DNA of 63,928 nucleotides, filler included, from Reclinomonas americana ATCC 50394 (GCA_048213135.1; 11 parts of 11 records of this genome joined end to end with filler, not necessarily neighbours in it), one strand, 5' to 3'. Shown: positions 14,514 to 36,523, counted from the whole stretch's first letter. The notes: generated from the sequence alone by a model not told the origin. A program made the numbers and translations.

Positions 14514-14613
14514 NNNNNNNNNNNNNNNNNNNNNNNNNNNNNNNNNNNNNNNNNNNNTTAATTAATTAANNNNNNNNNNNNNNNNNNNNNNNNNNNNNNN
14601 NNNNNNNNNNNNN
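14514..14613. other. Artificial contig spacer N44-TTAATTAATTAA-N44 (also at 17123-17222, 19322-19421, 21701-21800, 24376-24475, 36189-36288, 50365-50464, 53350-53449, 56246-56345, 62122-62221)
   Basis: An identical 100-bp linker with stop codons in all six frames, present ten times. Confidence 0.98.
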
Positions 14614-17033: not shown

Positions 17034-17457
17034 GTTTGTATTCACAAAGAGCGCCCTCCCTTTTCCCACCCTTTTTCTTCTGCAGCAGTCACACTCACGT
17101 TCTCTTTCTTGTTTCGAGCGCANNNNNNNNNNNNNNNNNNNNNNNNNNNNNNNNNNNNNNNNNNNNTTAATTAATTAANNNNNNNNNNNNNNNNNNNNNN
17201 NNNNNNNNNNNNNNNNNNNNNNGCTTCAGATCTGCTTCTACCGTCCTTTGTCTTGCACTCTCTTGAGGTTTCTGGTGTTGGAGGGCTATGAGCATGACGC
17301 TCGCTCGTACTTGGCGATTGGTGTGACTGTTTTTATGATTATTCGGATATTTGTACTTCTGCTTGAGACGCCTAAGCGACAGGGAACGACTACTCGAGGT
17401 TGTTTCCTTTGCTGACGCTCTGCTCTTACTCTGATAGTTTTACTGGAAAGAGTGATT

Positions 17458-17538
17458 GCAAATGAAAAGCCCCGTTTGTTGTGACTGCTGTTCCTCTGGA
17501 AGAAATCAGTCACCAACAAACGGGGGCTTTTCACTTGC
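17458..17538. repeat. Near-perfect ~30-bp inverted repeat (81-nt hairpin)
   Basis: 17458-17487 against the reverse complement of 17507-17538 shows one mismatch and two single-base indels. Confidence 0.85.
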
Positions 17539-17744
17539 TTTGCTTACAATCAAAAGACCGAAGGCAGATCAGAGCACAGGCAAAAGGGAAACACACCCAA
17601 AGAGGTATGAACTATCACCAGTAGAGTCCGCTGTAAACAAGAAAACCGAAGATGTAGGAGAAAACCATAATCAACAATAGAATATTAAACCAGCGTGGAC
17701 AATCGTGCCAGCGCGCGGAATGAAAAGATGAACAAGCAAATAAA

Positions 17745-17835
17745 AGTAGAACGATTGGAGACGACGAATTTGAAATGAGTTGGCTCCTGATCGTTCTACT
17801 CCAGAAACCTCAGTATGTCTAACAACAACTATCAC
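17745..17835 (-). other. Conserved motif plus long hairpin, copy 2
   Basis: AACTATCAC at 17827-17835 and CCAGAAACCTCAGTAT at 17801-17816. The 11-bp perfect stem 17745-17755 / 17790-17800 is extended by GGAG/CTCC. Confidence 0.7.
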
Positions 17836-17899
17836 CGACCGTAAACCTGGAGGATCAGCTCGTGTCGTGCATTGAGGCGTCGAACTCTGCCGATGTTGA

Positions 17900-19170
17900 C
17901 TGCACGGCTGTCACACCGCGGACAGCAGGTACGTCTGTTGCTCCTCCAGTTCCCTGCTTCTTGACCGTCACCCTCCTCTCCAAAGCACCATGCACATGGC
18001 CAGCGCGGCTTCTCCGCTACTCAAACTTGACCGGACCCCTGCTAGGACCTCGCCGCAGTGTGTACTACACAGCAGATACACGGCAAGGCACTTTACCTCA
18101 GGATGACGCGTGACGAGGCTGCTGACCTGACTTCCATACCCACCACTACTGGAGAACAACCGTGCGTGAAAAACATGTCTCCTTCATTGTTCGTGCCTCC
18201 ACGTTGCTCACTACTTGGTGTAGTGGATGAGAATATTTGGGAGGATCTGGTACGGGTGGAAAATGACACTGCGCGGTACGCAAACGACGGAGAAACGTGA
18301 GTGAACAAGCAGGTGAAACCTGTGCAGTGCTCGATCGATATCCTCGCGCAACTCTGAAGATGTGGGGAACCAAGTGAGTAAGTTTATCTGATCGCACCTA
18401 GCAACCGCGCCACTCCCACTCACATTCATCGTTCTTGACGGTCACAGCGTCACGTCCGGCAAAATTTCCCGATCCCTTCACGTACACGCTGTGGAAGCGG
18501 CGGCTGTCACGCCCCTGGCCCATGCGAGGCGGCAGGAAATGATCGTGTCGCTCGTCTGGAGCGTTCAAAGCATTCACCTGCACGTTGCATTCGCCAGTCA
18601 AGAAAAAGCACCTTGGGGCAGTGAGCAGAAACACATTTACACATACCGTTTCCATGTCTCCAAGCAGCACAGAGCACATGAGAATGGCTCGCTGCACATG
18701 CACGATGTGAGGACGCACGACACTCTGCTGCACACAAACAGACAAGATAGCAACACACCGCATTGTCGTTCGGCCTGGGCGACGTGTACACGTCGGCTTT
18801 CCTGCGATACGGCAGACACACGCACGATCAGTCGGCAATGACAAATCACAAGTCGCACTTACTGCACTCTCGCAACTGCAACAGATTGGCAAAGTACACT
18901 GCGCTCGCGACATTATAGTGAGCTCGGTCATTCACATAATATATTCGTCACTGCACGCACAAACCTCCGAGACCGAACATGTGGCAGGCGGGGTTCTGGT
19001 TGCGGACGTGACGATGTTGGCGGCACAACTGGCAGTCGGCCAAGCAGTTGACATTTGCTCGCCCATCGCCCACGGCCACGGCCACCTGGCAGCCAACATC
19101 CACGTTGAAGTCCGCCGGCGGAATCATCTGCACGCCCACTGTCACCCACCACAATTCGCAATGCAGGCAC
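17900..19170 (-). CDS. Probable multi-exon eukaryotic hypothetical gene; boundaries uncertain
   Basis: Several GT..AG intron candidates join segments such as ELREDIDRALH / VIFHPYQILPNILIHYT / GGYGSQVSSLVTRHPE. Confidence 0.3.
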
Positions 19171-19421
19171 TTTGAGTCACAAAACTCACCGAGCGATCAA
19201 GAATCGCGTCAACTGCCTTTTCATGCGTGCCGTGGAACCTGCAATGGTAGAGGGAAAGTGAGCTGCAGTACACACACACGCACACACACAAAGAAGTCTC
19301 GTAACAGCGAGATTGGCTTTANNNNNNNNNNNNNNNNNNNNNNNNNNNNNNNNNNNNNNNNNNNNTTAATTAATTAANNNNNNNNNNNNNNNNNNNNNNN
19401 NNNNNNNNNNNNNNNNNNNNN

Positions 19422-24475: not shown

Positions 24476-24880
24476 GGCCGCGTTGTCCTCGCCACGGGCC
24501 CGCCTGGCCAGATACTCGAAAACCTTTCGGGCCTCCTCTTCGGTGACGTCCTTTGCTTTGCGGCTCGCCGTGCGCGGCTCGTCGGGACGGCCGCGCCGCG
24601 CATCGACGAGTTCGATCAGTTTCGCCATGATATCTCCGCGGGACGGAGGCGCCACCACTTCCTGCTCGATCAGCATGTCCAGAGCGAAGCCGAGCTGGCG
24701 GCGGTAGACCCGCACAGTCGACCCCTTGATCACGCCGCCTGCCTTGAGGGAGCGCAGGAGCGCCTCCAGAGGCGGAAGGTCCGGGTAGTCCCGGCGAGCA
24801 CGACGAAGGTGCTGGTCACCCTCGGCACGGGGATCGGCGGCGATGAGTGGTACGGTCGGTTTCTCGGTCTCGGATGGCAT
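24476..24880 (-). CDS. N-terminal part of a putative divergent tyrosine recombinase/integrase (3'-partial)
   Basis: A helical STVRVYRRQL segment and basic linker RRGRPDEPRTASRKAK resemble the core-binding region and linker of integrase-like proteins. The catalytic residues would lie beyond the contig end. Confidence 0.45.
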
Positions 24881-25233
24881 CGGACACCTGTTAGTTCAGA
24901 CGCTTTCCCTGAGCCTACGGATCCCGATGAATAGGACCATGCCGGACTTTCTGGGGCGGCCGGTCAGAGCGTGGTTCGGCAAGCAGCCAACGAGCGCGGT
25001 GGCGCCGGTTGTGCTGGAGCCGTTAGTTCAGAACGCGCAGCACCAAACGGGCTTGGCGGAGTTCTACAGGTCGAGGCCCGATCGCGTCCCCCGACTTACC
25101 AGCTGCCAAAACGTCGAAAGAGTTCTGTCAGGCCGGCGCATCCAATGATGCGCGGCGAGTATTCTTCAATCTTCTTCAATTCCCAGCGGATTGCAGCGTA
25201 TCGCTTCAATTCGGCGATATATTCTGGCGTGAG

Positions 25234-25812
25234 ATGAAAAGTTTTGAAGAGACTTGGCTTTCTGCTATCCTGCAGGCATCGGCGTGGAGCGAGGCTGCGG
25301 GGATGGGGAAAGACGGAATCGACGAGCACATTGCCGCGGGAGCGCGCGCGGTCGCGGCGGCTCTGGATGGGCCGGCCGGTCAGATCCCGCTCGATCGCAT
25401 CGTCATCCGTCATCTCGCCTGGTTCGATCTATGCCAGGAACGCGGTATGACCTGGTCCCAGATGGCACTCCTTCTGCGGAATGCCGGTGCAGGGCGCGAA
25501 AACGGACAGCCCTTCACCCCGGGGCATCTGAGCAGCGTGGTGTGGCGGCAGCGCCAGAAGAGTGCTGGCGGGCAAGCCACGTCGGCGTCACGGTCGTCTC
25601 CACCAGCGCTTGCGGTTGCCGGATACCCGGACGCAAGACAGCCTTCGCTCCCGCATTCCCGTAAAACGGCCAGCCCTCCGCCGGTTTTCTCTATTCCGGC
25701 GCGGCCTCAGCTCCCGCCGGTCCCGCCACCCGAACCGGTGCCGTCTGACGTGCGCGCCATGATGCGCCGTGCCGCGCAGCTGCGGAACGAGCGCTTCGAT
25801 GACGAGGAATAG
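25234..25812 (+). CDS. TraK/StbA-like DNA-binding protein (true start may be 25303)
   Basis: HTH-like HLAWFDLCQERGMTWSQMALLLRNAG..FTPGHLSSVVWRQR, then a Pro-rich linker. It lies upstream of a TraL/StbB-like ATPase. Confidence 0.5.
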   Translation: MKSFEETWLSAILQASAWSEAAGMGKDGIDEHIAAGARAVAAALDGPAGQIPLDRIVIRHLAWFDLCQERGMTWSQMALLLRNAGAGRENGQPFTPGHLSSVVWRQRQKSAGGQATSASRSSPPALAVAGYPDARQPSLPHSRKTASPPPVFSIPARPQLPPVPPPEPVPSDVRAMMRRAAQLRNERFDDEE

Positions 25813-25864
25813 CGATGCGTGTTCCGGGTAGAGTAGCCGATGCGGATACGGGACGGGCGGCAGG

Positions 25865-26941
25865 ATGAAGCGGCCCATCACCGAATCGGAACGCCGCAGG
25901 CTCTCGCTTGAGCACAGGCAGCGAGCAGCCGAGCGCATGGGCGTGTCCAATGACGAGGCGCCGGGCCTGGACATGCGCACCGCCCCCGAACCGCTTCGGC
26001 TGGGCACGGGGAACAGTTTCGTGCCGCTGCTCGTACCCGACCGGACACTGAAGGCGGCCGCGGGGCGCTACCCGTCGCGCGCGATCGTTGCAAGGCTGCG
26101 CCGGTCACTGGCCGTGCATAGCCTTATGGCCCTCCACGGGCTGCAGCCGTTGCTCGGCACCCGGCAGGCTGCCCGGGACAGGATCGCCACGGTGGCGCCA
26201 AGCGGCATCGACCACCTGATGCGTGAGGGCCGCCAATATCTGTCGCAGGAAACCGCCTTTGACTCGGAAGAGGAGTTGCGGCGGCTGTTCGAGCGCAAGC
26301 GGGAATTGCTCAAAGACGCAGGCATCGACATCCCGTGGCGCCGGGAAGAGCTGGTCGAGGCGGAACTGGCCGCCGTGCGGCTGGTCTCGATCGCCTCGGT
26401 TCGGGCCCAGGTGATCCTGTCGGCGTTCGAGGCGGCTCAGCGTTCGGCCAGGCCTGGCAGGACGGCGAATGGAGACGAGGAAGCGGTCATCGACGAAACC
26501 GCCTGGCAGGCGATCCGGGAGACGTTCGCCCGCTACCATCCTGAGCTTGGCATCGGCTCGCTCTGGGAGATCGCGGCCTATGCCGACATCAACCCCTGCA
26601 CCCTCTGGCCGCAGCATACCGCTCGCTTCGCCACCCTGTTCGAACTCGCCCGTTTCATCGGCCGGGTCGACCGCGGGATCGAGGCCAGCCTCGCCTGCGT
26701 TCATCTCGATTTGCTGGAAGCGGCCCTGACGGAGATGCCGGATCCTTTTGACGAGGATCAGGCGCAGTTGGCCATGGTGAGCCGGGTCAAGCTCCGCCAG
26801 CACTTCCGGCAGGAAGCGCTTCTGGCGGTCGCCGGCGAGGCCAGGCGCGAAGGCGCAAGCCTTCGCATCGCACGCGGGACGCGTGCTCTCAGCCTCGCGG
26901 AACCTCCCGGGCCGCATGGTTCCGGCAACCCACCGGCCTGA
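25865..26941 (+). CDS. Hypothetical protein, 358 aa, mostly helical
   Basis: Long ORF with GC3-rich codons and an AGG RBS-like sequence, in the same orientation as its neighbours. Confidence 0.75.
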   Translation: MKRPITESERRRLSLEHRQRAAERMGVSNDEAPGLDMRTAPEPLRLGTGNSFVPLLVPDRTLKAAAGRYPSRAIVARLRRSLAVHSLMALHGLQPLLGTRQAARDRIATVAPSGIDHLMREGRQYLSQETAFDSEEELRRLFERKRELLKDAGIDIPWRREELVEAELAAVRLVSIASVRAQVILSAFEAAQRSARPGRTANGDEEAVIDETAWQAIRETFARYHPELGIGSLWEIAAYADINPCTLWPQHTARFATLFELARFIGRVDRGIEASLACVHLDLLEAALTEMPDPFDEDQAQLAMVSRVKLRQHFRQEALLAVAGEARREGASLRIARGTRALSLAEPPGPHGSGNPPA

Positions 26942-27105
26942 GCGCCCGCCATCGGCCGGAATCCAGGCCGGCGCGGCCATCCGGATCGTGCAGCGATGCC
27001 TGCAAGCCCCTGACGTTTCGTCGCAATTTCGGCGGCATTATTGTCGCCGCCGGCGCGCTGAATGCCCCTATCGAAAGGGTCCCCCCATCCACACAGGGAC
27101 CCGAC

Positions 27106-27942
27106 ATGACGAAGAACCAGACCTCTCACAACACCGCCGCCACCGCCGTGCTGATCACCGCCGACGATGGCGGTGTCGGCAAGACCACCTGCGCGATCCA
27201 GGTCGCGACGGCCTTCAAGCTGGCGAATCTCCCGGTTGACCTGTTCCAGCTCGACACGAAGGCCAAGCTCGCCACCAAGACCGGCTTGCCCGTGACTTCG
27301 CTCTCGATCGCCGACCAGCACAGCGCGCGCGGCGACGACCTCAACGCAGCCGACGTGATCGCGCCTTGGTACCGGGCGGTCACCGGCATGCGGGAGACCG
27401 GACGCTCGTCGATTCTGGAGGTCGGTGGAGCGAACGCCGGGCTCTTCCATGCCGGCGTCGCCGAAATCGACGTCCAGGAGGACATCGCCGCCCTCGACCT
27501 TTCGGTAACGGCCTTCCTCGTGACCAGGGCCGGCGAAGACTCCGCTCTCCAGACCCTGCGCGAGGCGAAGCGGCTCGGCACGACCCTGCCGGGCGCCGAA
27601 CTCGTCCTCGTCCGAAATGAAGTCGCCGGCTGCCCCGTGGCTGCCGCCGCGTATCTCGATGAGTCGGTACGTAAGCGCTACCTCGCCCTCTTCGAGCGCC
27701 ATGTCTCGATCCGGATGCCGCGTGTCCGGCCGCGTTCGATGGCGCTCTACGAGCGCCTGCACGTCACGCCCGACATCGTCGTGTCGTGGCACGCCGACAA
27801 CTATGGCGAGGCGATCCGCCGGAGCGGGCGTCCGCGCGACGAAGCCAAAATCTTCGTGAAGGACATCGCCGCCTGGTCGGGCGTGATCCAGGACGAGCTG
27901 CTGCGCGCGCTGCCGATTCTGGGCGGGCCGTCCGATGGCTGA
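27106..27942 (+). CDS. ParA/MinD-superfamily ATPase, TraL/StbB-like
   Basis: Walker A DDGGVGKTT; Walker B region SILEVGGAN; LVLVRNEVAG and IRMPRV resemble the TraL layout. Confidence 0.7.
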   Translation: MTKNQTSHNTAATAVLITADDGGVGKTTCAIQVATAFKLANLPVDLFQLDTKAKLATKTGLPVTSLSIADQHSARGDDLNAADVIAPWYRAVTGMRETGRSSILEVGGANAGLFHAGVAEIDVQEDIAALDLSVTAFLVTRAGEDSALQTLREAKRLGTTLPGAELVLVRNEVAGCPVAAAAYLDESVRKRYLALFERHVSIRMPRVRPRSMALYERLHVTPDIVVSWHADNYGEAIRRSGRPRDEAKIFVKDIAAWSGVIQDELLRALPILGGPSDG

Positions 27943-28561
27943 GGGCCGCGCCAGATTCATGCGGAACGTTCGCGCGGTTGCCGATGAGGAGCGACAGGCA
28001 TCGGCACGTCTGATCAGGCGCCTGAAAGGCCTGACGCCGGCCCAGCTCCTGCGGGAGCCCATGTCGACCGTCTCGCAATTGTCGATGCGGCAGTATCGCG
28101 ACATCGTCTCGACGATCGCTCCCGAACTCTCCTTGCCGAAGGAGACCTCGGAAGATGAAGCCCTCCCCGCGATCAGCCTCGGAGAGCGCATCCACGCGGT
28201 CTGGAGAGGAATGACGACGCTGGCCCGCAGGTTGGTCATCGGTACGCTGATCGTCGTGATCGGCATCCCGGTCACCGTGCTGGTCCTCCCCTGGGGGCTT
28301 TGGTGGCTCGTCCCCTATACGTTGGTGCGCCCCCGCGACAGCACCGGTTGGCCATCCTGCCGGCGCCTGGCCTGGCATATCGATGGGTGCCTCTATCACG
28401 CACCGGCCGACCTGTACTGGGAGTGGGTCGCCGCTCAGGCGGCCCAGCCCGTCGCGGAGATTAGGGCCAATAATCGGCATCTGCCCGCAGCCTATATCCC
28501 CGCCAGAAGCGCGGTCGTGATCTGGCACGGCCGGGGGCAACTCGCGAAGAAAGCACGATGA
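27935..28561 (+). CDS. Membrane protein with a C-terminal degenerate LysM-like segment
   Basis: TM helix LVIGTLIVVIGIPVTVLVLPWGLWWLV. The tail CLYHAPADLYWEWVAAQAAQPVAEIRANNRHLPAAYIPARSAVVIW follows LysM spacing. It overlaps the ATPase stop by 8 nt. Confidence 0.6.
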   Translation: MAEGRARFMRNVRAVADEERQASARLIRRLKGLTPAQLLREPMSTVSQLSMRQYRDIVSTIAPELSLPKETSEDEALPAISLGERIHAVWRGMTTLARRLVIGTLIVVIGIPVTVLVLPWGLWWLVPYTLVRPRDSTGWPSCRRLAWHIDGCLYHAPADLYWEWVAAQAAQPVAEIRANNRHLPAAYIPARSAVVIWHGRGQLAKKAR

Positions 28562-28690
28562 CCAACGGGAATCCGGGCCGACCGGTTCGGCATCGCCGGA
28601 CGTATTCGCTGCTTTCGCCAAACGAGGATCGCGAAGGCGGATCATCGCCGCCAACGGTGAAATGGCGGCAATCGGGACAGCCCCGGCAGC

Positions 28691-28801
28691 ATGGTTGCCG
28701 CGGTCAGCCTCTCAGGCCCGGCCGCGCGGATCGATCGCACGCGCATGGCCGAACTTGGCGACCTCACCCGGCGCGCCTCTGCCGCGCTGCCGCTTGGGTA
28801 A
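28691..28801 (+). pseudogene. IclR-family regulator, C-terminal remnant
   Basis: MVAAVSLSGPAARIDRTRMAELGDLTRRASAALPLG* matches the IclR effector-domain tail. No N-terminal HTH is present. Confidence 0.55.
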
Positions 28802-29110
28802 CCTGCCGCACGGGCGCAGTTTCGCATCTGATCCGCCCAACCTCGACGCCAGTGGCCTAGTTTTGCTCCACATATGACAGATCCCGAAACGCACTCATAC
28901 GGCGTCTGCCTGCAGGCCTACTGGAGCGGCTGGAGAGCAATTTTTCTTTTGATAGAGTGATTTAATCCATCCCGAAAGATGATTGCGCTTGACCGCGCGC
29001 GCCGTCGGACAGGATCATCATCCATAACGAATCGGAAGACTGACGTGCGCCGACAAGCTGCCGATTGGCGCCCCGGCTGCGAAAGGCAATCAGGGCGAAG
29101 GTAGCAGACG

Positions 29111-30850
29111 GTGACGATGGAAGCGCCGACATTGCAGATTTCTCTTCGGCAACCGTCGCTGCTGGATTTGTGCGCAGTCCGGAATGCTGTCGATACCGTT
29201 GCCAATGCGGGCATCGAGGCGCGGGGCGCGATCTTCACGCGCCGCGAGGTTGTCGATTTCCTGCTGGACCTGACCGGCTACACGCCGACCTCCCCTCTTC
29301 TCCGGATGCGCTTGCTGGAGCCGGCATTCGGCGGCGGCGACTTTCTGCTTCCCGCTGTCGAACGCCTTCTTGCGGCATGGAAACTTGCCGGGTGTCCGTC
29401 GCCCGCAACCGCTCTGCGTGATTGCATCAGGGCCGTCGAATTGCATCGCGCTACGTTTACAGAAACTCGCGACCGCGTATTTGCAATGCTCGTCGCCGGC
29501 GGGATAGCGCGAGGCGAGGCAAAGGCCATTGTCGAACAATGGCTGCTCTACGGTGATTTCCTGCTCGCCCCACTGAAAGACGAGTTCGATGTCGTGATCG
29601 GTAATCCGCCATATGTACGCCAGGAATTGATCCCCGACGCGCTCATGGCTGAATACCGCGCACGGTATCGGACGATTTACGACCGCGCCGACTTGTATGT
29701 GCCGTTCATCGAGCGGTCGTTGAACTCACTCGGAAAGGGCGGGCAGCTAGGCTTTATCTGTGCCGACCGGTGGATGAAAAATCGCTACGGCGCACTCCTC
29801 CGAAAGATGATCACCGAGCATTTTCATCTCAAAATCTATGTCGACATGGTCGATACCCCGGCCTTTCATTCCGAAGTTATCGCCTATCCTGCCATTACCG
29901 TTATTTCTCGGGAAAAGCCCGGCGTCACACGCATCGCTCACCGTCCCGCCATCGACGCCGACGGGTTGAGCGCTCTTGCGACTCGGCTTCTGGATGCGAA
30001 GGCCCCTGAAGCTTCTTCGGGTATCCGCGAGCTGCACAGTACAACCGCTGGCTCGGAGCCATGGATTCTTGAGTCTTCCGACCAATTGAACCTGATCCGC
30101 CGCCTGGAGCGTGACTTTCCAACGTTGGAAGCTGCCGGCTGCAAGGTTGGCATTGGCGTTGCGACCGGGGCGGACAAGGCTTTCATCGGAATGTTTGACA
30201 GCCTCGATGTCGAGGATGATCGAAAACTGCCTCTGGTCATGACCCGCGACATTCTCGAGGGGCATGTACAATGGCGTGGCCTCGGCGTCGTCAACCCGTT
30301 TAGCGACGATGGCCGCCTTGTCGATCTGGATTCATATCCGCGTTTGCGTTGCTATTTCGAAGCGCGGAAAGAAGAAATCGCTGGCCGCCACGTCGCGCAA
30401 AAGGCCCCCGCGAACTGGTATAGGACGATTGACCGGATCTATCCCGGCCTAGCCGCTAAGCCGAAGCTTCTCGTGCCCGATATCAAGGGTGAAGCCCACA
30501 TCGTCTATGAGCGCGGGGAATTATATCCTCATCACAATCTCTATTTCGTCACATCAGACGATTGGGACTTGAGAGCGCTGCAAGCCGTCTTGCTCTCAGG
30601 CATTACGCGACTTTTCATTTCGACCTACTCGACAAAGATGCGCGGCGGGTATCTTCGCTTTCAGGCACAATACCTGCGCCGTCTGCGGCTGCCCCGGTGG
30701 CCGGACGTTCCCGAGAAGCTCCGGAGCACGCTGGTCGAGGCAGCAAAACTTCGGGATATCGCAGCGTGCAATCAAACTGCGTTCGAGCTTTACGGCCTTT
30801 CCAAAGCCGAAAGGTCGGTGATCGGGGGGAATGGCGCGGATGGGAATTGA
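29111..30850 (+). CDS. Type II N6-adenine DNA methyltransferase, M.PaeR7I/M.XhoI-like (gamma class)
   Basis: Motif [16 protein letters not shown], motif [12 protein letters not shown], motif IV VIGNPPY, and a TaqI-like C-terminal TRD (YPHHNLY). The start may be the ATG at 29117. Confidence 0.92.
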
Positions 30851-31577
30851 CCTTGCCGATTACGAGCGCAAGGCCCGCGAGGCGACGATGGCTTTTTGGG
30901 GCAACCGCGAAAAAGCCAGACAAAAACAACTCGAATCCGGCAAGCCGGATCAGGGAGAACGTGCTGGCGTTACCGCCGGAACCAACATGGACGGCTTTGT
31001 CGCCCTTGTCATGGATTTGGTCGAGGCGAATGGTCTTAGCCGCGCCGAGATACACCGCAAGCGCGCCGTCCTGACGCTGCCGGGATATTTCCGCCCGACC
31101 AAGCTCTGGGACATTCTGGTGATCCATAAAGGGGAGTTGATTGCGGCTGTCGAGCTCAAGAGCCAGGTCGGACCGTCCTTCAGCAACAATTTCAACAACC
31201 GGACCGAGGAAGCCATCGGCACCGCGCACGACCTCTGGACAGCCTACCGGGAAGGTGCGTTTGGGAAACGTCCGCGTCCTTTTGTCGGCTGGATGATGAT
31301 GGTCGAGGATGCGCCGAAATCTCGTCGTCCGGTCACAGATCGTTCGCCGCATTTCCCCGTATTCAAGGAGTTTCAGGGCGCGTCCTACCTCAAGCGCTAC
31401 GACATTCTTTGCCAACGGCTTGTGCAGGAGCAGCTGTACACCACGGCATCCGTGCTGACGTCCCCACGCACGGCTGCGGCCAGCGGCGAGTATGCGGACA
31501 TGTCAGACCTGACAAGTATCAAGACCTTCGTGACCTCCTTTGCCGGCCATATCGCTGCAACCGCCGCGAGAGGATGA
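30840..31577 (+). CDS. PaeR7I/XhoI-family type II restriction endonuclease (predicted site CTCGAG)
   Basis: [43 protein letters not shown] and ASYLKRY are hallmarks of the XhoI family. It overlaps the MTase stop. Confidence 0.92.
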
Positions 31578-31731
31578 CCGTTGATCACCGCTTTGCGAGA
31601 GTCTTGGTATGGGGGCTGCCTATATGATCGGCGGCTCTTCGCCTAGCCACTCAAGCAAGAGCGCTTCGAGGCCATTCGCGGAATATACCGCCGGCGCCGC
31701 GCCATGGCCCCGGCGGTATTGTGCGAGATCT

Positions 31732-32551
31732 TCAGTCGGCGAGACGGCTCAGGGCCTTCCAGTCGAACTCGACGCCGTGGCCGGGTTGGTTGGACGCAAT
31801 GGCGTTGCCGTCGCGAATGACGAGCGGTTCAGCGATATAGCGATCCAGCCCGAAGCTATGACCTCGAGATAGGAGCGGTTGGGGCAGGCGGCCAGCAGAT
31901 GCACGGTGACATCTTGCGCGCCATGCGAGGTGACTGGCAGGTTGAACGCTTCGGCCAGCCGCGCGATCTTGATGAAGCCGGTGACGCCGCCGCAATTGGT
32001 GACGTCCGGCTCCGGGAAGGTAACACCGCCCGACGCCATGTAGATCTTGAATTCCCAGGGCGTACGCAGATTCTCACCGGCGGCGATCGGGATGCCGCCT
32101 TCACGGACGATGCGTGCGTGGCCGGCGGGATCGTCGGGAATGGTCGGCTCCTCCAGCCAGACGAGCTCCGAGGATTGGAAAGCGCGGGCGGCGCGGATGG
32201 CCTCATCGACCGACCACTTCATGTTGGCGTCCGCCATCAGCGGGAAATCGGCGCCCAGATGGGCTCGCATCGCCTTGACGCGCTCGACGTCTGCGGAAAG
32301 CCACCCACGCCCGACCTTCATCTTGATGGCGCGGAACCCCTTTTCGAGATTGCGGTCGGTCTGCGCCAGCAAGGCATCGAGGCTGAATTCGAGATCGACG
32401 CCGCCGGCATAGCAGGGGACGTAATCGTCATAGCCGCCGAGCAGATGCCATAGGGCAGGCCGAGCTTCTTGGCCTTCAGGTCCCACAGCGCCATGTCGAC
32501 GGCCGAGAGCGCCAGCATGCTGGGGCCGCCGCGGCCGCTATAGTGCAGCCC
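31732..32551 (-). pseudogene. Mandelate racemase/muconate lactonizing enzyme family; 5'-truncated, two frameshifts
   Basis: AVDMALWDLKAK, KMKVG, LMADAN, WLEEP, AAGEN and PGHGVEFDW are spread over three frames (shifts near 32452 and 31860). The N-terminus is absent. Confidence 0.8.
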
Positions 32552-32947
32552 CTACGTACGAATACGCCAAGGACCGCGGGATAGATGCCCGCGCGTGTGC
32601 GATACCGGGGCTATGATGGTGGATCGCGAGGGTCAGGCGGCCTGCTGATCCGCAGGTTTTTCGGCTTCGCACAGGCGTTTCCACTCCCACGGCAGCAGTT
32701 CGGGCAGGCGCGAGACGGACAGACCCGAGTTGAACAGTGTTTTTGGCGAAGGTTATATTTTCCAATGAGATGCGGCGCCGTTCTGGCGTGTTACCACTAC
32801 ATTTTCAGGGGCTGACGGTCAGGTGTCAACGGCGGCGCAAAAGTCGGCCATTGGGCGGCGTAAAACCAGGCCAGGTTTGGCGCGTGCAGGAGCCCGCCGT
32901 GAGGGCGTAGCCCGAGCGGTGGGCTCCTGCACGCGCGGCGATTTTTT

Positions 32948-33715
32948 CTATGGGTTGCCGGCGGCCTTCCGGGCTCGGCTTTGCGCAAGGCGGTAGCTGT
33001 CGCCGTTCATCTCGAGAATGCTGACGTGATGGGTCAGACGGTCGAGCAGCGCGCCGGTCAGCCGCTCGGATCCCAGCGTTTGCGTCCATTCGTCAAAGGG
33101 CAGATTGCTGGTGATCAGGGTGGCGCCGCGCTCGTAGCGTTGCGAGATCAGCTCGAACAGCAGTTCCGCTCCGGTCTTCGACAGCGGCACGAAGCCCAGC
33201 TCGTCGATGATCAGCAGCTTGTAGGCGGCCATCTGCTTCTGGAAGCGCAGCAGGCGCCGCTCGTCGCGAGCCTCCATCATCTCGCTGACGAGAGCGGCCG
33301 CGGTCGTGAAGCCAACGGACAGGCCCTTCTGACATGCCGCCAACCCGAGACCCAGGCAAACATGGGTCTTGCCCGTACCGCTGGGACCGAGCACGATGAC
33401 ATTCTCGCGGCGCTCGATCCATTCGCAGCGCGCGAGCTCCAGCACCTGCATCTTGTTGAGCTTTGGGATGGCGGCGAAGTCGAAGCTGTCGAGGCTTTTG
33501 ACGACCGGGAACCTTGCTGCCTTGATGCGGCGCTCGACCTTGCGGCGGTCCCGTTCGATCATCTCCCGTTCGGCCAGCCGGGTGAGATAGCCGACATGAT
33601 CGACACCCTCCGTGGCGCATTGCCGGGCCAGCTTCTGATACTCGCGCTGGACGGTCGGCAGCTTGAGGGTTTTGAGATAGTGGTCCAGCAGGATCGCGGA
33701 AGCCTCGGCGCTCAT
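32948..33715 (-). CDS. istB: IS21-family helper ATPase IstB
   Basis: LKTLKLP, GPSGTGKTH, LLIIDELGF, TSNLPF and ALLDRLTH. Confidence 0.95.
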   Translation of the reverse strand: MSAEASAILLDHYLKTLKLPTVQREYQKLARQCATEGVDHVGYLTRLAEREMIERDRRKVERRIKAARFPVVKSLDSFDFAAIPKLNKMQVLELARCEWIERRENVIVLGPSGTGKTHVCLGLGLAACQKGLSVGFTTAAALVSEMMEARDERRLLRFQKQMAAYKLLIIDELGFVPLSKTGAELLFELISQRYERGATLITSNLPFDEWTQTLGSERLTGALLDRLTHHVSILEMNGDSYRLAQSRARKAAGNP

Positions 33716-34032
33716 GCCACCTGCTCCCCTTCACTGCCGCCAAGCAGGCGCAGATAGGCCTTCACCGAGGTTGTCTCCACCGTCGCCCTCGGCAGGTAGG
33801 GATAGATGGACAGGTCCAGTCTCGGCGGCCGGTGCTCCACCCGGCACAGGATCAGATGCTTGACGGCGTCGAAGCCGATCGCGCCGAGCTGGAGGGCCTG
33901 CTTCACCGCCGCATGCAGATCGGATACCGCGAAGCTCTCCAGCAGACGCAGAACCTGCACATACTCGCGCCGTCCGTGCTTTGCCATCCGCGCCTCCATC
34001 AGGCGGCGCAGCGTGGCGAACTCCTCGGGCAG
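33712..34032 (-). pseudogene. istA: IS21 transposase IstA, C-terminal fragment
   Basis: LPEEFATLRRLMEARMAKHGRREYVQVLRLLE..PPRLDL..YPYLP, with ATGA overlap to istB. The DDE core is missing. Confidence 0.85.
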
Positions 34033-34262
34033 ACGAACTTCGAGCCCTCAAGCCGCTTGTGCACCAGCACCAGCCCGGTGCGATCCCAGACCAGGATCTT
34101 GATTCGGTCAGCCCTTTTGGCGCGGAAGACGATGGCCGCGCCGCTGTAGGGATCAAGGCCGAGTTCCTCCTGCGCCGCCGCGGCCAGCCCGTCGAGGCCG
34201 CGCCGGAAGTCGACCGGACGCGTCGCCATGTAGATCTTCAGATCGGCGCCCGGCGCAATCAT
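34031..34262 (-). pseudogene. tnpB: IS66 accessory protein TnpB, 3'-truncated
   Basis: PVDFRRGLDGL..FRAKRADRIKILVWDRTGLVLVHKRLE, broken at KFV where W would normally follow. Confidence 0.88.
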
Positions 34263-34711
34263 CGCGCAGCCCGCACCGCACGGATCACCTGCACCAACTG
34301 CTCAAGGTCAACCGCGGTGCGGATCACCGCATCGCCGACCACGATCTCAACCTTCGCCGGCGCCGATTTCAGCGGCTTCGTCGGCGGCCGGGGCGACGGC
34401 GCGTCTTCCACCAGCAGCGGCGCGAACAACGGCTCCGGGCTCTCCGAAAGGGCCAGCTCTCCCAGACGAAGGCGCCGCCGCCAATCATAGACCTGCGAGC
34501 GTGTCGCGCCATGCTTGCGCGCGACCACCGCCACCTGCGCCCCCGGCAGCAGGCTCTCCGCAGCTATGCGGGCCCTTTCGCCCTCCGTGCGAACCCGCCG
34601 CCCCGTTGGACCCTCAACAACCTCAAGCCGGCCTACGTAGCCAGGTGTCGCGACGTCCAAATGGACGTCCATTTGGACGTCTGCTTCCAACCCGGCCCTC
34701 CGTCTCGCCAA
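34259..34711 (-). CDS. tnpA: IS66 TnpA (HTH) protein; start probably near 34672
   Basis: RLEVVEGPTGRR..ARIAAESLLPGAQVAVVARKHG..QVYDWRRR. Confidence 0.85.
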   Translation of the reverse strand: MARRRAGLEADVQMDVHLDVATPGYVGRLEVVEGPTGRRVRTEGERARIAAESLLPGAQVAVVARKHGATRSQVYDWRRRLRLGELALSESPEPLFAPLLVEDAPSPRPPTKPLKSAPAKVEIVVGDAVIRTAVDLEQLVQVIRAVRAAR

Positions 34712-34836
34712 TCGGAGGAGGCTGCCACATTCAGCTCATGTACCCAACGAGGGGAGCGGCGCAGCGCTTACATGAGAAAGGCTATCCGGTCGTGATCAAC
34801 TCCGAACCGGAAACGGCTCTTTGTGTTTCGGCCCTT

Positions 34837-35063
34837 TAATTGCGGGGAGCTGTCAACCTCAGTTTCGCGCCGTCATCGCCGGGGTCATGGTCCTTTCCGA
34901 GGTCGAGCGCCTCATGATGATGTTCGGGTCGGGTGCCTCAACGTGTGCAACGACGTTCCAGTGGACGTCAGCCGAAACAACGAGGTCACCACAACCGCCG
35001 TCCCGGCGGGGACATCGCGAGTGCCGAGATTGGCGCCCGTGAGCAGGTTGACGCGGATAAAAA
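34837..35063 (-). ncRNA. Putative bridge RNA/seekRNA of the IS1111-type element; exact ends unknown
   Basis: An internal loop carries two 9-nt segments matching the two flanks of the element, enclosed by the stems GGUG-CCUCG/UGAGG-CACC and GACGU/ACGUC. Confidence 0.8.
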
Positions 35064-36092
35064 CTATGCCGTCTTTTCGCTTCCCCATTCGAAGCTAGTG
35101 CCGTCGACCCAGATGCAGTGGAGGAGCACGGCCATCTTGCGTGCGACGGCCACCTTGGCCTTCTTCATCCCGATCCGCTTGGAGAGACGAATGCCCCATG
35201 CTTTCAGCGTCGACCATTTCTTCGTTCGATGCATCAGGACGCTGGCTGCCTCGTAGAGATAGGTTCGCAGCAGGCGATCTCCCCAATGCGAGACACGGCC
35301 GCTGACATCCGTTTCGCCGGATTGCTTTCGCCGCGGCGTCAGGCCCAGGTAGGCACCGACATCGCTGGCCCAGGAAAAGCGCGAGGGATCGTCGATCGTG
35401 TGGCGGTAGGTCAGCGCCGTCACCACGCCGACGCCGGGAACCGTCATCAGCCGGCGCGTGGTGCAGTCGTCACGAGCGAGGCGCCGGACCTGACGATCGA
35501 GTTTCTCTTGTTCCTCGCAAGCCTGTTCATGGACGCTGAGGAGCGCCCCAATCACGGATCGGAGCGGATGACCCTCGACAACCAGCTCCAGGACCTTTCG
35601 CCGGAACTGCGCACCAATCGATCGGCTGAACTGCAGCCCATGTTCCTTCAGCATCGAACGGATCTGGTTCTCCAGATCGCGGCGGATGGCGACAAGCCTC
35701 GAGCGTGCGACGAGCAGGGATCGGGTTGCCTGACTCTCTGTACTCTTCACTTTGACTTCTCGGTACCAGCCGACCCGAACCAACTCCGCCAGGCCTTGGG
35801 CGTCGTTCTCGTCGCTCTTGTTCATTCGAACCGACAGCACGGCTTTCGCGTGACGGGCGTCGATGCAGACGACGGGCAGGCCGATCCGGTTGAGTTCATG
35901 CCACAGCCAGCTCGACATCGCGCCGGTCTCAAAGCCGATCCGCTCGGCGCTCGGCGCGCGCTTGCTCAACAGTTCAGCCAAAGCACCGGGATCGGACCTC
36001 GCCCTGCCTTGAAAGACGACCTTTCCAGATTCATCGACGACGCAAACGCTGGTCTCTTTCTGCGATACATCCAGCCCGACATACTGTTTCAT
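35064..36092 (-). CDS. IS110-family DEDD recombinase/transposase (342 aa)
   Basis: [12 protein letters not shown] and KSDENDA supply DEDD. C-terminal VPGVG and [12 protein letters not shown] contain the catalytic Ser. Confidence 0.95.
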
Positions 36093-36523
36093 GATGACCA
36101 TCCCGTGCTCGGGCCGGCGCCGCTGCCTGCCGTCCGTCACTCTGAAGTCAGGGGCTCAGCGGCAGCAATTACGTCATCGTGTGCAAGTNNNNNNNNNNNN
36201 NNNNNNNNNNNNNNNNNNNNNNNNNNNNNNNNTTAATTAATTAANNNNNNNNNNNNNNNNNNNNNNNNNNNNNNNNNNNNNNNNNNNNGTCCCAGCAGCA
36301 GCTTCCCGTCACAAACCATGCAGCTCTCCCGCGTCAGCGGGTTCGTTCAATCCTCAAACCGCCACATGCGGCAATCCGCCCACACCGCCGAGTTGGAATC
36401 ACGACAACACGGCAGGAGCAAATTGCAGAAAAACCGTTGCTCCAAAGCTGACAAAATTAAATATTGGGAAGTTGCTGTCCGGTTGCGTTGTCAACGCGTT
36501 GCGCGTTCCTCCGGACGACAAAG

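Follow-up and report, generated by a model that had tools for sequence, protein, structure and literature searches.

A probable IS1111-group insertion sequence in a Reclinomonas americana assembly and the predicted seekRNA guides for its target in other mobile elements

The window analysed here is a stretch of 63,928 nucleotides (nt) from the assembly of Reclinomonas americana ATCC 50394 (GCA_048213135.1). On its minus strand, the segment 36180..34833 is very probably an intact insertion sequence (IS) of the IS1111 group, within the IS110 family, whose downstream non-coding region encodes a seekRNA (bridge RNA). As far as sequence evidence goes, two strands of an internal loop in this RNA are guides that read the two halves of the target, TTGCAC/GCCGAAACA (the stroke marks the point of insertion). 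The same kind of evidence places this target within the terminal inverted repeats of other mobile elements, 11 bp in from the outer tip, and indicates that insertion is in one orientation and without target duplication.

Guides and flanks in related insertions

Read on the minus strand, 34990..34931 gives GGUGACCUCG-U-UGUUUCGGC-U-GACGUCCACUGGAACGUC-G-UUGCACACG-U-UGAGGCACC, in which UGUUUCGGC (guide 1) is the reverse complement of the right flank GCCGAAACA (34832..34824) and UUGCACACG (guide 2) equals TTGCACACG of the left flank (36186..36178). These strings had been quoted in an initial annotation of the window, which read them as the target guides of an IS1111-type recombinase, and all of them are present as described. 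Each of the two 9-mers occurs three times in the window, where about 0.6 copies are expected, and three or more matches turned up in 2 of 100 shuffles for one 9-mer and in 3 of 100 for the other. The third occurrences (20936 and 13377) lie in unrelated surroundings. The evidence against chance comes from relatives and not from this copy alone: the guide-flank match here is held to be non-random because guide and flank covary over 56 related insertions.

Those insertions were obtained from a scan of one genome per species that yielded 184 relatives, 80 loci being kept. The closest sources are Bosea (96-99% protein identity), followed by Mesorhizobium, Rhizobium, Sphingopyxis, Bradyrhizobium and others (65-91%). 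Sequences were parsed by three anchors, one at the left end (ATGACGTAATTGC), one closing the loop (GACCTCG...GTTGAGGC) and one at the right end (CGCAATTAAAGG). Among the 81 sequences (the window and the 80 loci), 62 could be parsed and 59 had both flanks, representing 56 distinct insertions as told apart by the unique DNA past the right flank. The 19 rows that were dropped lacked at least one anchor, being truncated, interrupted or cut by contig ends, and 14 of them were inspected; outside the counts given here, guide 1 and right flank agree exactly in three dropped rows (L033, L034 and L037) and are off by one or two bases in two others (L029 and L030).

In 51 of the 56 insertions guide 1 and the reverse complement of the right flank are identical; three have one mismatch, one has two and one has four, in this last case with a single base deleted from the flank. 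The nine mismatches in total compare with a shuffled mean of 91, and none of 10,000 shuffles was as low. The guide falls into seven classes, each paired with its own flank class (GCCGAAACA, GCCGATTGA, GCCGTTTGA, GCCGAATGA, GCCGAATAA, GCCGATTCA and GCTTATTCA), while the left guide has fourteen variants, among relatives whose transposases are 65-99% identical to that of the window. On a tree that used just the gene and the inner left end, guides and flanks being excluded, guide 1 underwent at least 13 changes in its four variable bases, and the flank at least 15 in the corresponding ones; these four-base cores are equal in 53 of the 56 rows, and the core class of the window, AAAC, has at least three origins.

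Guide 2 follows its flank as well, with 73 mismatches to the left flank against 120 after shuffling, a figure that again none of 10,000 shuffles reached. It ends in ACG in all 56 insertions. For its first base (column 59), 25 of 42 relatives have C, 16 have U and one has A, paired to a G of the other strand; because it pairs with G while the target keeps T, this base is probably not a reading position. The comparison of guides and flanks across homologues, which the initial annotation had put forward as a check, is thus positive, and the two loop strands stand in the order of IS1111 seekRNAs, for which the rule, as given in part of the published account, is that the top-strand complement lies 5' of the bottom-strand complement (PMC11187229).

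Applied to 42 distinct relatives, RNAalifold recovered the loop that holds the guides, a large internal loop between an outer stem and an inner hairpin. In this consensus 98% of cells are paired and nine pairs show compensatory change on both sides, in support of the stem, loop and hairpin of the initial annotation. On four of five measures no shuffle out of 500 came up to the observed value, and on the fifth, further pair types, 9 of 500 did; slid controls were at most 49% paired. As a comparative prediction, the fold of stem, internal loop and hairpin is real.

Element ends, target and competing explanations

The ends of the element follow from a comparison of empty and occupied sites in relatives, in which the uninterrupted ...CAATATTGCAG GCCGAATGACA contrasts with the occupied ...ATATTGCAG-ACG(ATGACG...AAAGG)GCCGAATGACA. 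Sphingopyxis sp. J-6 (G005), which carries a relative 74% identical, has seven empty sites GGGTCCCTTTTGAAC/GCCGTTTGACA and five occupied ones, and ACG...AAAGG is all that sets its occupied loci (L006, L007, L011, L012 and L014) apart from the empty sites, nothing being duplicated. Because the empty sites lack ACG and the occupied sites have it, the element is taken to run from 36180 to 34833. In 54 of 56 left junctions ACG precedes ATGACG while the neighbouring bases vary. The left edge had originally been set at 36177, three bases off, since ACG (36180..36178) belongs to the element. Of the "two perfect 9-nt guides" once claimed, guide 1 stands, with a 9/9 match, and guide 2 has to be restated as five or six target bases followed by the ACG of the element's own left end.

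The target was then looked for without the element in 201 genomes, these being the family of the closest relative. The 17-mer TTGCACGCCGAAACACA, in which TTGCAC is followed directly by GCCGAAACACA, occurs 13 times in seven of them, and its reversed control not at all. The 18-bp target TTGCACACGGCCGAAACA proposed earlier, which includes ACG, occurs in none of the 201, a zero that is weak by itself given that only about 0.02 chance matches are expected. All 13 places are outer tips of multicopy elements, identical inside and unique outside past ...ACACA. Right flanks of the relatives are common for 11 bases only (GCCGnnnnACA) and then diverge, and left flanks show long stretches common to several relatives. 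In all 56 insertions the left end faces the TTG... half and the right end faces the GCC... half with the 11-base repeat tip.

The 342-residue transposase frame contains the Pfam domains PF01548 (E 3e-22) and PF02371 (E 1e-20) and scores 252.5 bits with NCBIfam NF033542, "IS110 family RNA-guided transposase", for which the cut-off is 140. In alignment, a C-terminal SG motif falls opposite GLTPRRYESG of the IS621 transposase 8wt6; a motif GL-P----S(T)G in the C-terminal domain is given for both the IS110 and IS1111 families in the part of Siddiquee et al. drawn on here (PMC11187229). On these matches the enzyme is assigned to the DEDD/serine type and its frame looks intact, in keeping with the recombinase gene that had been called at the outset. 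The non-coding DNA amounts to 231 nt downstream of the gene (35063..34833), terminating in GCAATTAAAGG at 34833, as against 88 nt upstream (36180..36093), and the sub-terminal inverted repeats TAATTGC/GCAATTA are perfect over 7 bp. The element shows the tested marks of the IS1111 group: the domains and SG motif of its transposase, its sub-terminal repeats, a non-coding region downstream of the gene, the order of its guides, and insertion specific to site and orientation without duplication. No second copy of the element was found in the window. Coordinates are collected in Table 1.

An additional repeat was noted in the non-coding region, where CGATGACG (34871..34878) duplicates an eight-base stretch at 36179..36172 in the left end. 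Conserved solely in the Bosea and Mesorhizobium relatives, it is probably due to chance.

Table 1. Coordinates of the element, its parts and the adjoining broken insertion sequences
Feature	Position	Strand	Remarks
Whole insertion sequence	34833..36180	-	1348 bp, ACGATGACG... to ...GCAATTAAAGG; ends from empty/occupied comparison in relatives
Left target half TTGCAC	36181..36186	-	Covaries with guide 2 in relatives; only AC beyond, contig end at 36188
Left end	36165..36180	-	Extension ACGATGACG (36180..36172), then sub-terminal inverted repeat TAATTGC (36171..36165)
Transposase gene	35064..36092	-	342 amino acids, counted from ATG at 36092
Target-binding stem-loop of predicted seekRNA/bridge RNA	34924..35000	-	RNAalifold consensus, 42 relatives
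Outer stem	34990..34981 with 34940..34931	-	RNAalifold consensus
Inner hairpin	34969..34952	-	RNAalifold consensus
Guide 1 UGUUUCGGC	34971..34979	-	9/9 match to right flank here
Guide 2 UUGCACACG	34942..34950	-	UGCAC reads left target half; ACG is first three bases of element left end
Candidate donor-binding part	34884..34922	-	CAUCAUCAU (34922..34914), hairpin GAGGCGCUCGACCUC (34913..34899), AAAGGACCAUGAC (34896..34884); putative
TTGACA, -35-like hexamer	34851..34856	-	18 nt from right end; putative promoter role only at joined ends
Right end	34833..34843	-	Sub-terminal inverted repeat GCAATTA (34843..34837), then extension AAGG (34836..34833)
Right target half and tip of host element's inverted repeat, GCCGAAACACA	34822..34832	-	Unique sequence past 34822
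IS21 IstB	32948..33715	-	Pile of broken insertion sequences
IS66 TnpB	33999..34262	-	Pile of broken insertion sequences
IS66-type helix-turn-helix protein	34259..34711	-	Pile of broken insertion sequences

Four other explanations of the same data may be considered. Of these the least improbable, though still unlikely, is that the insertion is a passive passenger, carried about within the repeat of its host element, so that the guide match records one old insertion per lineage. Five Sphingopyxis copies that have at least 70 bases of left flank in common, together with two guide-2 mismatches, are what such a passenger would leave, but they are expected under either view. Against it stand the repeated changes in the core of guide 1, at least 13 in number, with the flank following in 53 of 56 rows, the occurrence of one guide class in differing host contexts, the seven empty host ends in the same genome, and the intactness of both reading frame and RNA. 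The element as first drawn, 36177..34833 with an 18-bp target TTGCACACGGCCGAAACA and two full 9-nt guides, has in its favour that both 9-mers are exact in this copy. The failure of the 18-mer to appear in the 201 genomes counts little against it, for the reason already given, but the 13 occurrences of the 17-mer without ACG, always at element tips, the contrast in Sphingopyxis sp. J-6 between seven empty sites without ACG and five occupied sites with it, and the constancy of ACG in 54 of 56 left junctions amid varying neighbours make that version very improbable.

Alternatively, the loop might read the element's own ends, in donor recognition, TTGCAC and GCCGAAACA then being part of the element. 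The last three bases of guide 2 do equal the element end, but TTGCAC and GCCGAAACACA abut without any element at 13 places, as do their equivalents at seven in Sphingopyxis sp. J-6, and these halves vary between relatives while the true ends are constant, so that this explanation is scarcely credible. Finally, the matches between non-coding region and flanks might be due to chance, each 9-mer being found once more elsewhere in the window; that none of 10,000 shuffles attains the guide-flank agreement, and that at least 13 coupled changes are found on the tree, reduces the probability of this to a negligible level.

Certain observations weigh against an intact IS1111-group element with a seekRNA, and should be set beside the evidence for it. 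The left flank extends for only 11 bases from the originally proposed edge to the contig end at 36188, leaving the host element out of view. The left guide is loose: positions 2-6 of guide 2 match the flank exactly in only 29 of the 56 insertions, and all the Sphingopyxis copies have two guide-2 mismatches. Folding of the single sequence is no better than that of shuffles (the 231-nt region has a z-score of -1.26, the 121-nt core one of +0.27), and a search of Rfam returned no relevant family, its one chance match having an E of 4.5. Contigs of RNA libraries cover the region, but contigs cannot show transcription; production of the RNA, its binding by the transposase and exit of the element as a circle are carried over from published relatives. 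For IS1111 elements, terminal extensions of 7 (or 6) nt on the left and 3 on the right and sub-terminal repeats of "usually 11-13" are stated in the relevant part of Siddiquee et al. (PMC11187229), and a repeat range of 7-17 bp in that of Durrant et al. (PMC11208160). Here, unlike the published IS1111 elements as described in those parts, the perfect repeat has 7 bp and the extensions measured from it are 9 nt (left) and 4 nt (right), an asymmetric pair whose numbers vary with the chosen start of the imperfect repeat. Covariation in the putative donor loop, discussed below, is absent among the close relatives, in which the element ends are invariant throughout, and donor and target do not have an identical two-base core (AC as against GC), unlike in IS621.

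Donor joint, core and comparison with known systems

By analogy with published relatives, the seekRNA would be made and bound by the transposase, and the element would leave as a circle with abutted ends, giving the joint AAAGG/ACGATG; an abutted-end joint is described for both families in the parts of the published accounts used here. One internal loop would carry both guides, guide 2 continuing into ACG, the bases of the element's own left end, while a second RNA segment, AAAGGACCAUGAC, would read the donor joint and exchange would occur at a two-base core, which would be AC for the donor and GC for the target. Within the proposed second segment, AAAGGACCATGAC matches 12 of 13 bases of the abutted-end joint AAAGG/ACGATGAC, a match that none of 1000 shuffles reached, and CAUCAUCAU, lying across a small conserved hairpin, can pair with seven of the nine bases of ACGATGACG. 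Across 42 relatives this segment shows little or no variation. It is tempting to suggest that CAUCAUCAU-AAAGGACCAUGAC is the donor-reading part, but it is listed as a candidate only, because invariant ends allow no covariation. Three more distant plasmid loci (L113-L115), with transposases 41-49% identical, were also compared: L113 has no usable sub-terminal repeat, and in L114 and L115, elements without definable ends, the non-coding region and the end regions each time match in the same sense over 9-10 nt.

At the left junction the sequence is TTGCAC-AC-G and at the right one AAAGG-GC-C, and the empty site has GC only, so that C alone is common to donor and target. If this one-base common core is genuine, exchange in the clade may not require an identical core dinucleotide. 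Two odd junctions were seen among the 56 insertions, one with GCG in place of ACG on the left (L057) and one with a right flank ACCG in place of GCCG (L055), each bearing the first core base of the other partner. They could represent the other outcome of a mismatched core, though two cases prove nothing.

The hexamer TTGACA near the right end is conserved in the relatives over a variable spacer, and an abutted joint would read TTGACA-N17-GACGAT, in which the second hexamer is weak, with 3/6 matches. A promoter scan of the integrated copy gave no sigma-70-like promoter. Together these observations fit a promoter that would be formed when the ends are joined. No circle joint was seen among contigs from the sequencing runs. 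In run X15 one RNA-library contig (271 nt, over 34928..35198) has a depth of 63 as against 8 for the gene body; it is given no weight as evidence, because parts of a gene cannot be ranked by contig depth and because it differs from the window at 10 positions. The same run also shows a 90-base skip from 35010 to 35101, with a depth of 2.9.

Published systems were compared on the basis of parts of two papers. With ISEc11, ISKpn4, ISPst6 and ISPa11, as described in sections of Siddiquee et al. 2024 (PMC11187229), the present element has in common its type of transposase and long downstream non-coding region; a short RNA with the top-strand complement 5' of the bottom-strand one; and the use of one site in one orientation without duplication, with natural retargeting between relatives. 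It differs from them in its targets, which are here the inverted-repeat tips of IS21-type and other elements instead of a linear site, attC or REP (repetitive extragenic palindromic) sequences. The guide matches, known here from sequence alone, abut on the target and do not clearly overlap, whereas in that account those of IS1111 elements are said to overlap.

Likeness to the IS621 bridge RNA (Durrant et al. 2024, PMC11208160; 8wt6), again as set out in part of that paper, extends to the internal loop whose strands read opposite strands of the target halves, to a second RNA segment resembling the donor joint and to the aligned SG motif. In IS621, however, the left end encodes the RNA, upstream of the gene, whereas here the RNA is found in the right end, and the guides stand in the opposite order. 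IS621 also has one core dinucleotide (CT-like) that is common to target and donor and present in all four guides, in contrast to AC and GC here. The putative donor-reading bases fall outside a simple closed internal loop, as Durrant et al. note, in the part used, for many IS1111 members (PMC11208160). The element is accordingly not an IS621-type bridge system in the narrow sense, and the label "programmable" that was given to it at first is an analogy to published work. The relatives nevertheless amount to a natural retargeting series, which could inform rules of guide design for IS1111-type systems, less worked out than those for IS621. An IS1111-type target can be read from a single copy, but only after an empty site has fixed the ends.

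Host elements and neighbouring DNA

Beside one of the target tips lies an IS21-family IstA gene, with rve and Mu-transposase C-terminal domains (NF033546, 312 bits). The same 21-bp tip borders elements with an ISL3-family transposase (NF033550, 273 bits), where it lies outside their GGCTCTGAC repeats, and is also present on short elements without genes. In the ISL3-type elements (L042 749..2402; L096 1..1518; L021, L027, L002 and L062) the tip is found inverted at both ends and no 8-bp duplication accompanies it; on their left side, L044 and L080 run instead into IS21-like inner repeats. The close relatives of the window copy occupy at least two host contexts, one GTCAGACCC-type and the other GGGGTC-type, and contigs from three other samples match the window as far as 34821/34822 and then continue into three different sequences. 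This argues for repeated insertion, or at least for repeated spread.

To judge by the title of a 2003 paper by Partridge and Hall, IS4321 and IS5075, of the IS1111 family, reportedly insert into transposons of the Tn21 family at their terminal inverted repeats. In place of those Tn21-family hosts, the hosts here are of the IS21 family, of the ISL3 family with the same 21-bp tip, or short and gene-less, and IS21-type hosts would thus be added to the Tn21-type hosts known for IS4321 and IS5075. Full-text literature searches, together with motif searches of the supplements of PMC11187229 and PMC11208160, returned no description of the present clade or of IS21-type tips as a target. A wider proposal, which is offered tentatively and is rather doubtful, is that the clade as a whole lives on other transposons, inserting 11 bp from their inverted-repeat tips, that its right guide has been re-aimed at least 13 times, and that a mismatched core may suffice for exchange.

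Two further tips were noted. On a plasmid of Bosea sp. NBC_00550 (L116 3377..3500), a relative with 94% DNA identity sits in the right tip of a gene-less element of about 125 bp, its left target half TTGCAT having one mismatch to the guide. Within the window itself, at 62097..62121, another contig ends 25 bases into a similar inverted-repeat tip, TGTCAAACGGCTCGCAAAGTTGCCC, whose right half GCCGTTTGA has four mismatches to guide 1 and hence is no target for this copy.

The window consists of 11 contigs joined by N44-TTAATTAATTAA-N44 linkers, with N runs beginning at 14514, 17123, 19322, 21701, 24376, 36189, 50365, 53350, 56246 and 62122. Simple repeats rich in CA or CT close some of the contigs (for example 17223..19321 and 62222..63928), which do not resemble the alphaproteobacterial contig 24476..36188 that holds the element, and the record may mix DNA of different organisms.

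At lower coordinates on the same contig, an Eco57I-type methylase with a TaqI-like specificity domain is encoded at 29111..30850 (+) as a member of a restriction-modification pair, its gene overlapping the start of that for an XhoI-type endonuclease at 30831..31577 (+) (PF04555, 341 bits). A pile of broken insertion sequences at 32948..34780 adjoins the element. Besides the genes in Table 1 it includes a 95-residue frame at 33712..33999 (-) that has no Pfam match and is presumably the C-terminal end of an IstA, and, near 34770, GTAAGCGC, which we take to be the usual IS66 end.

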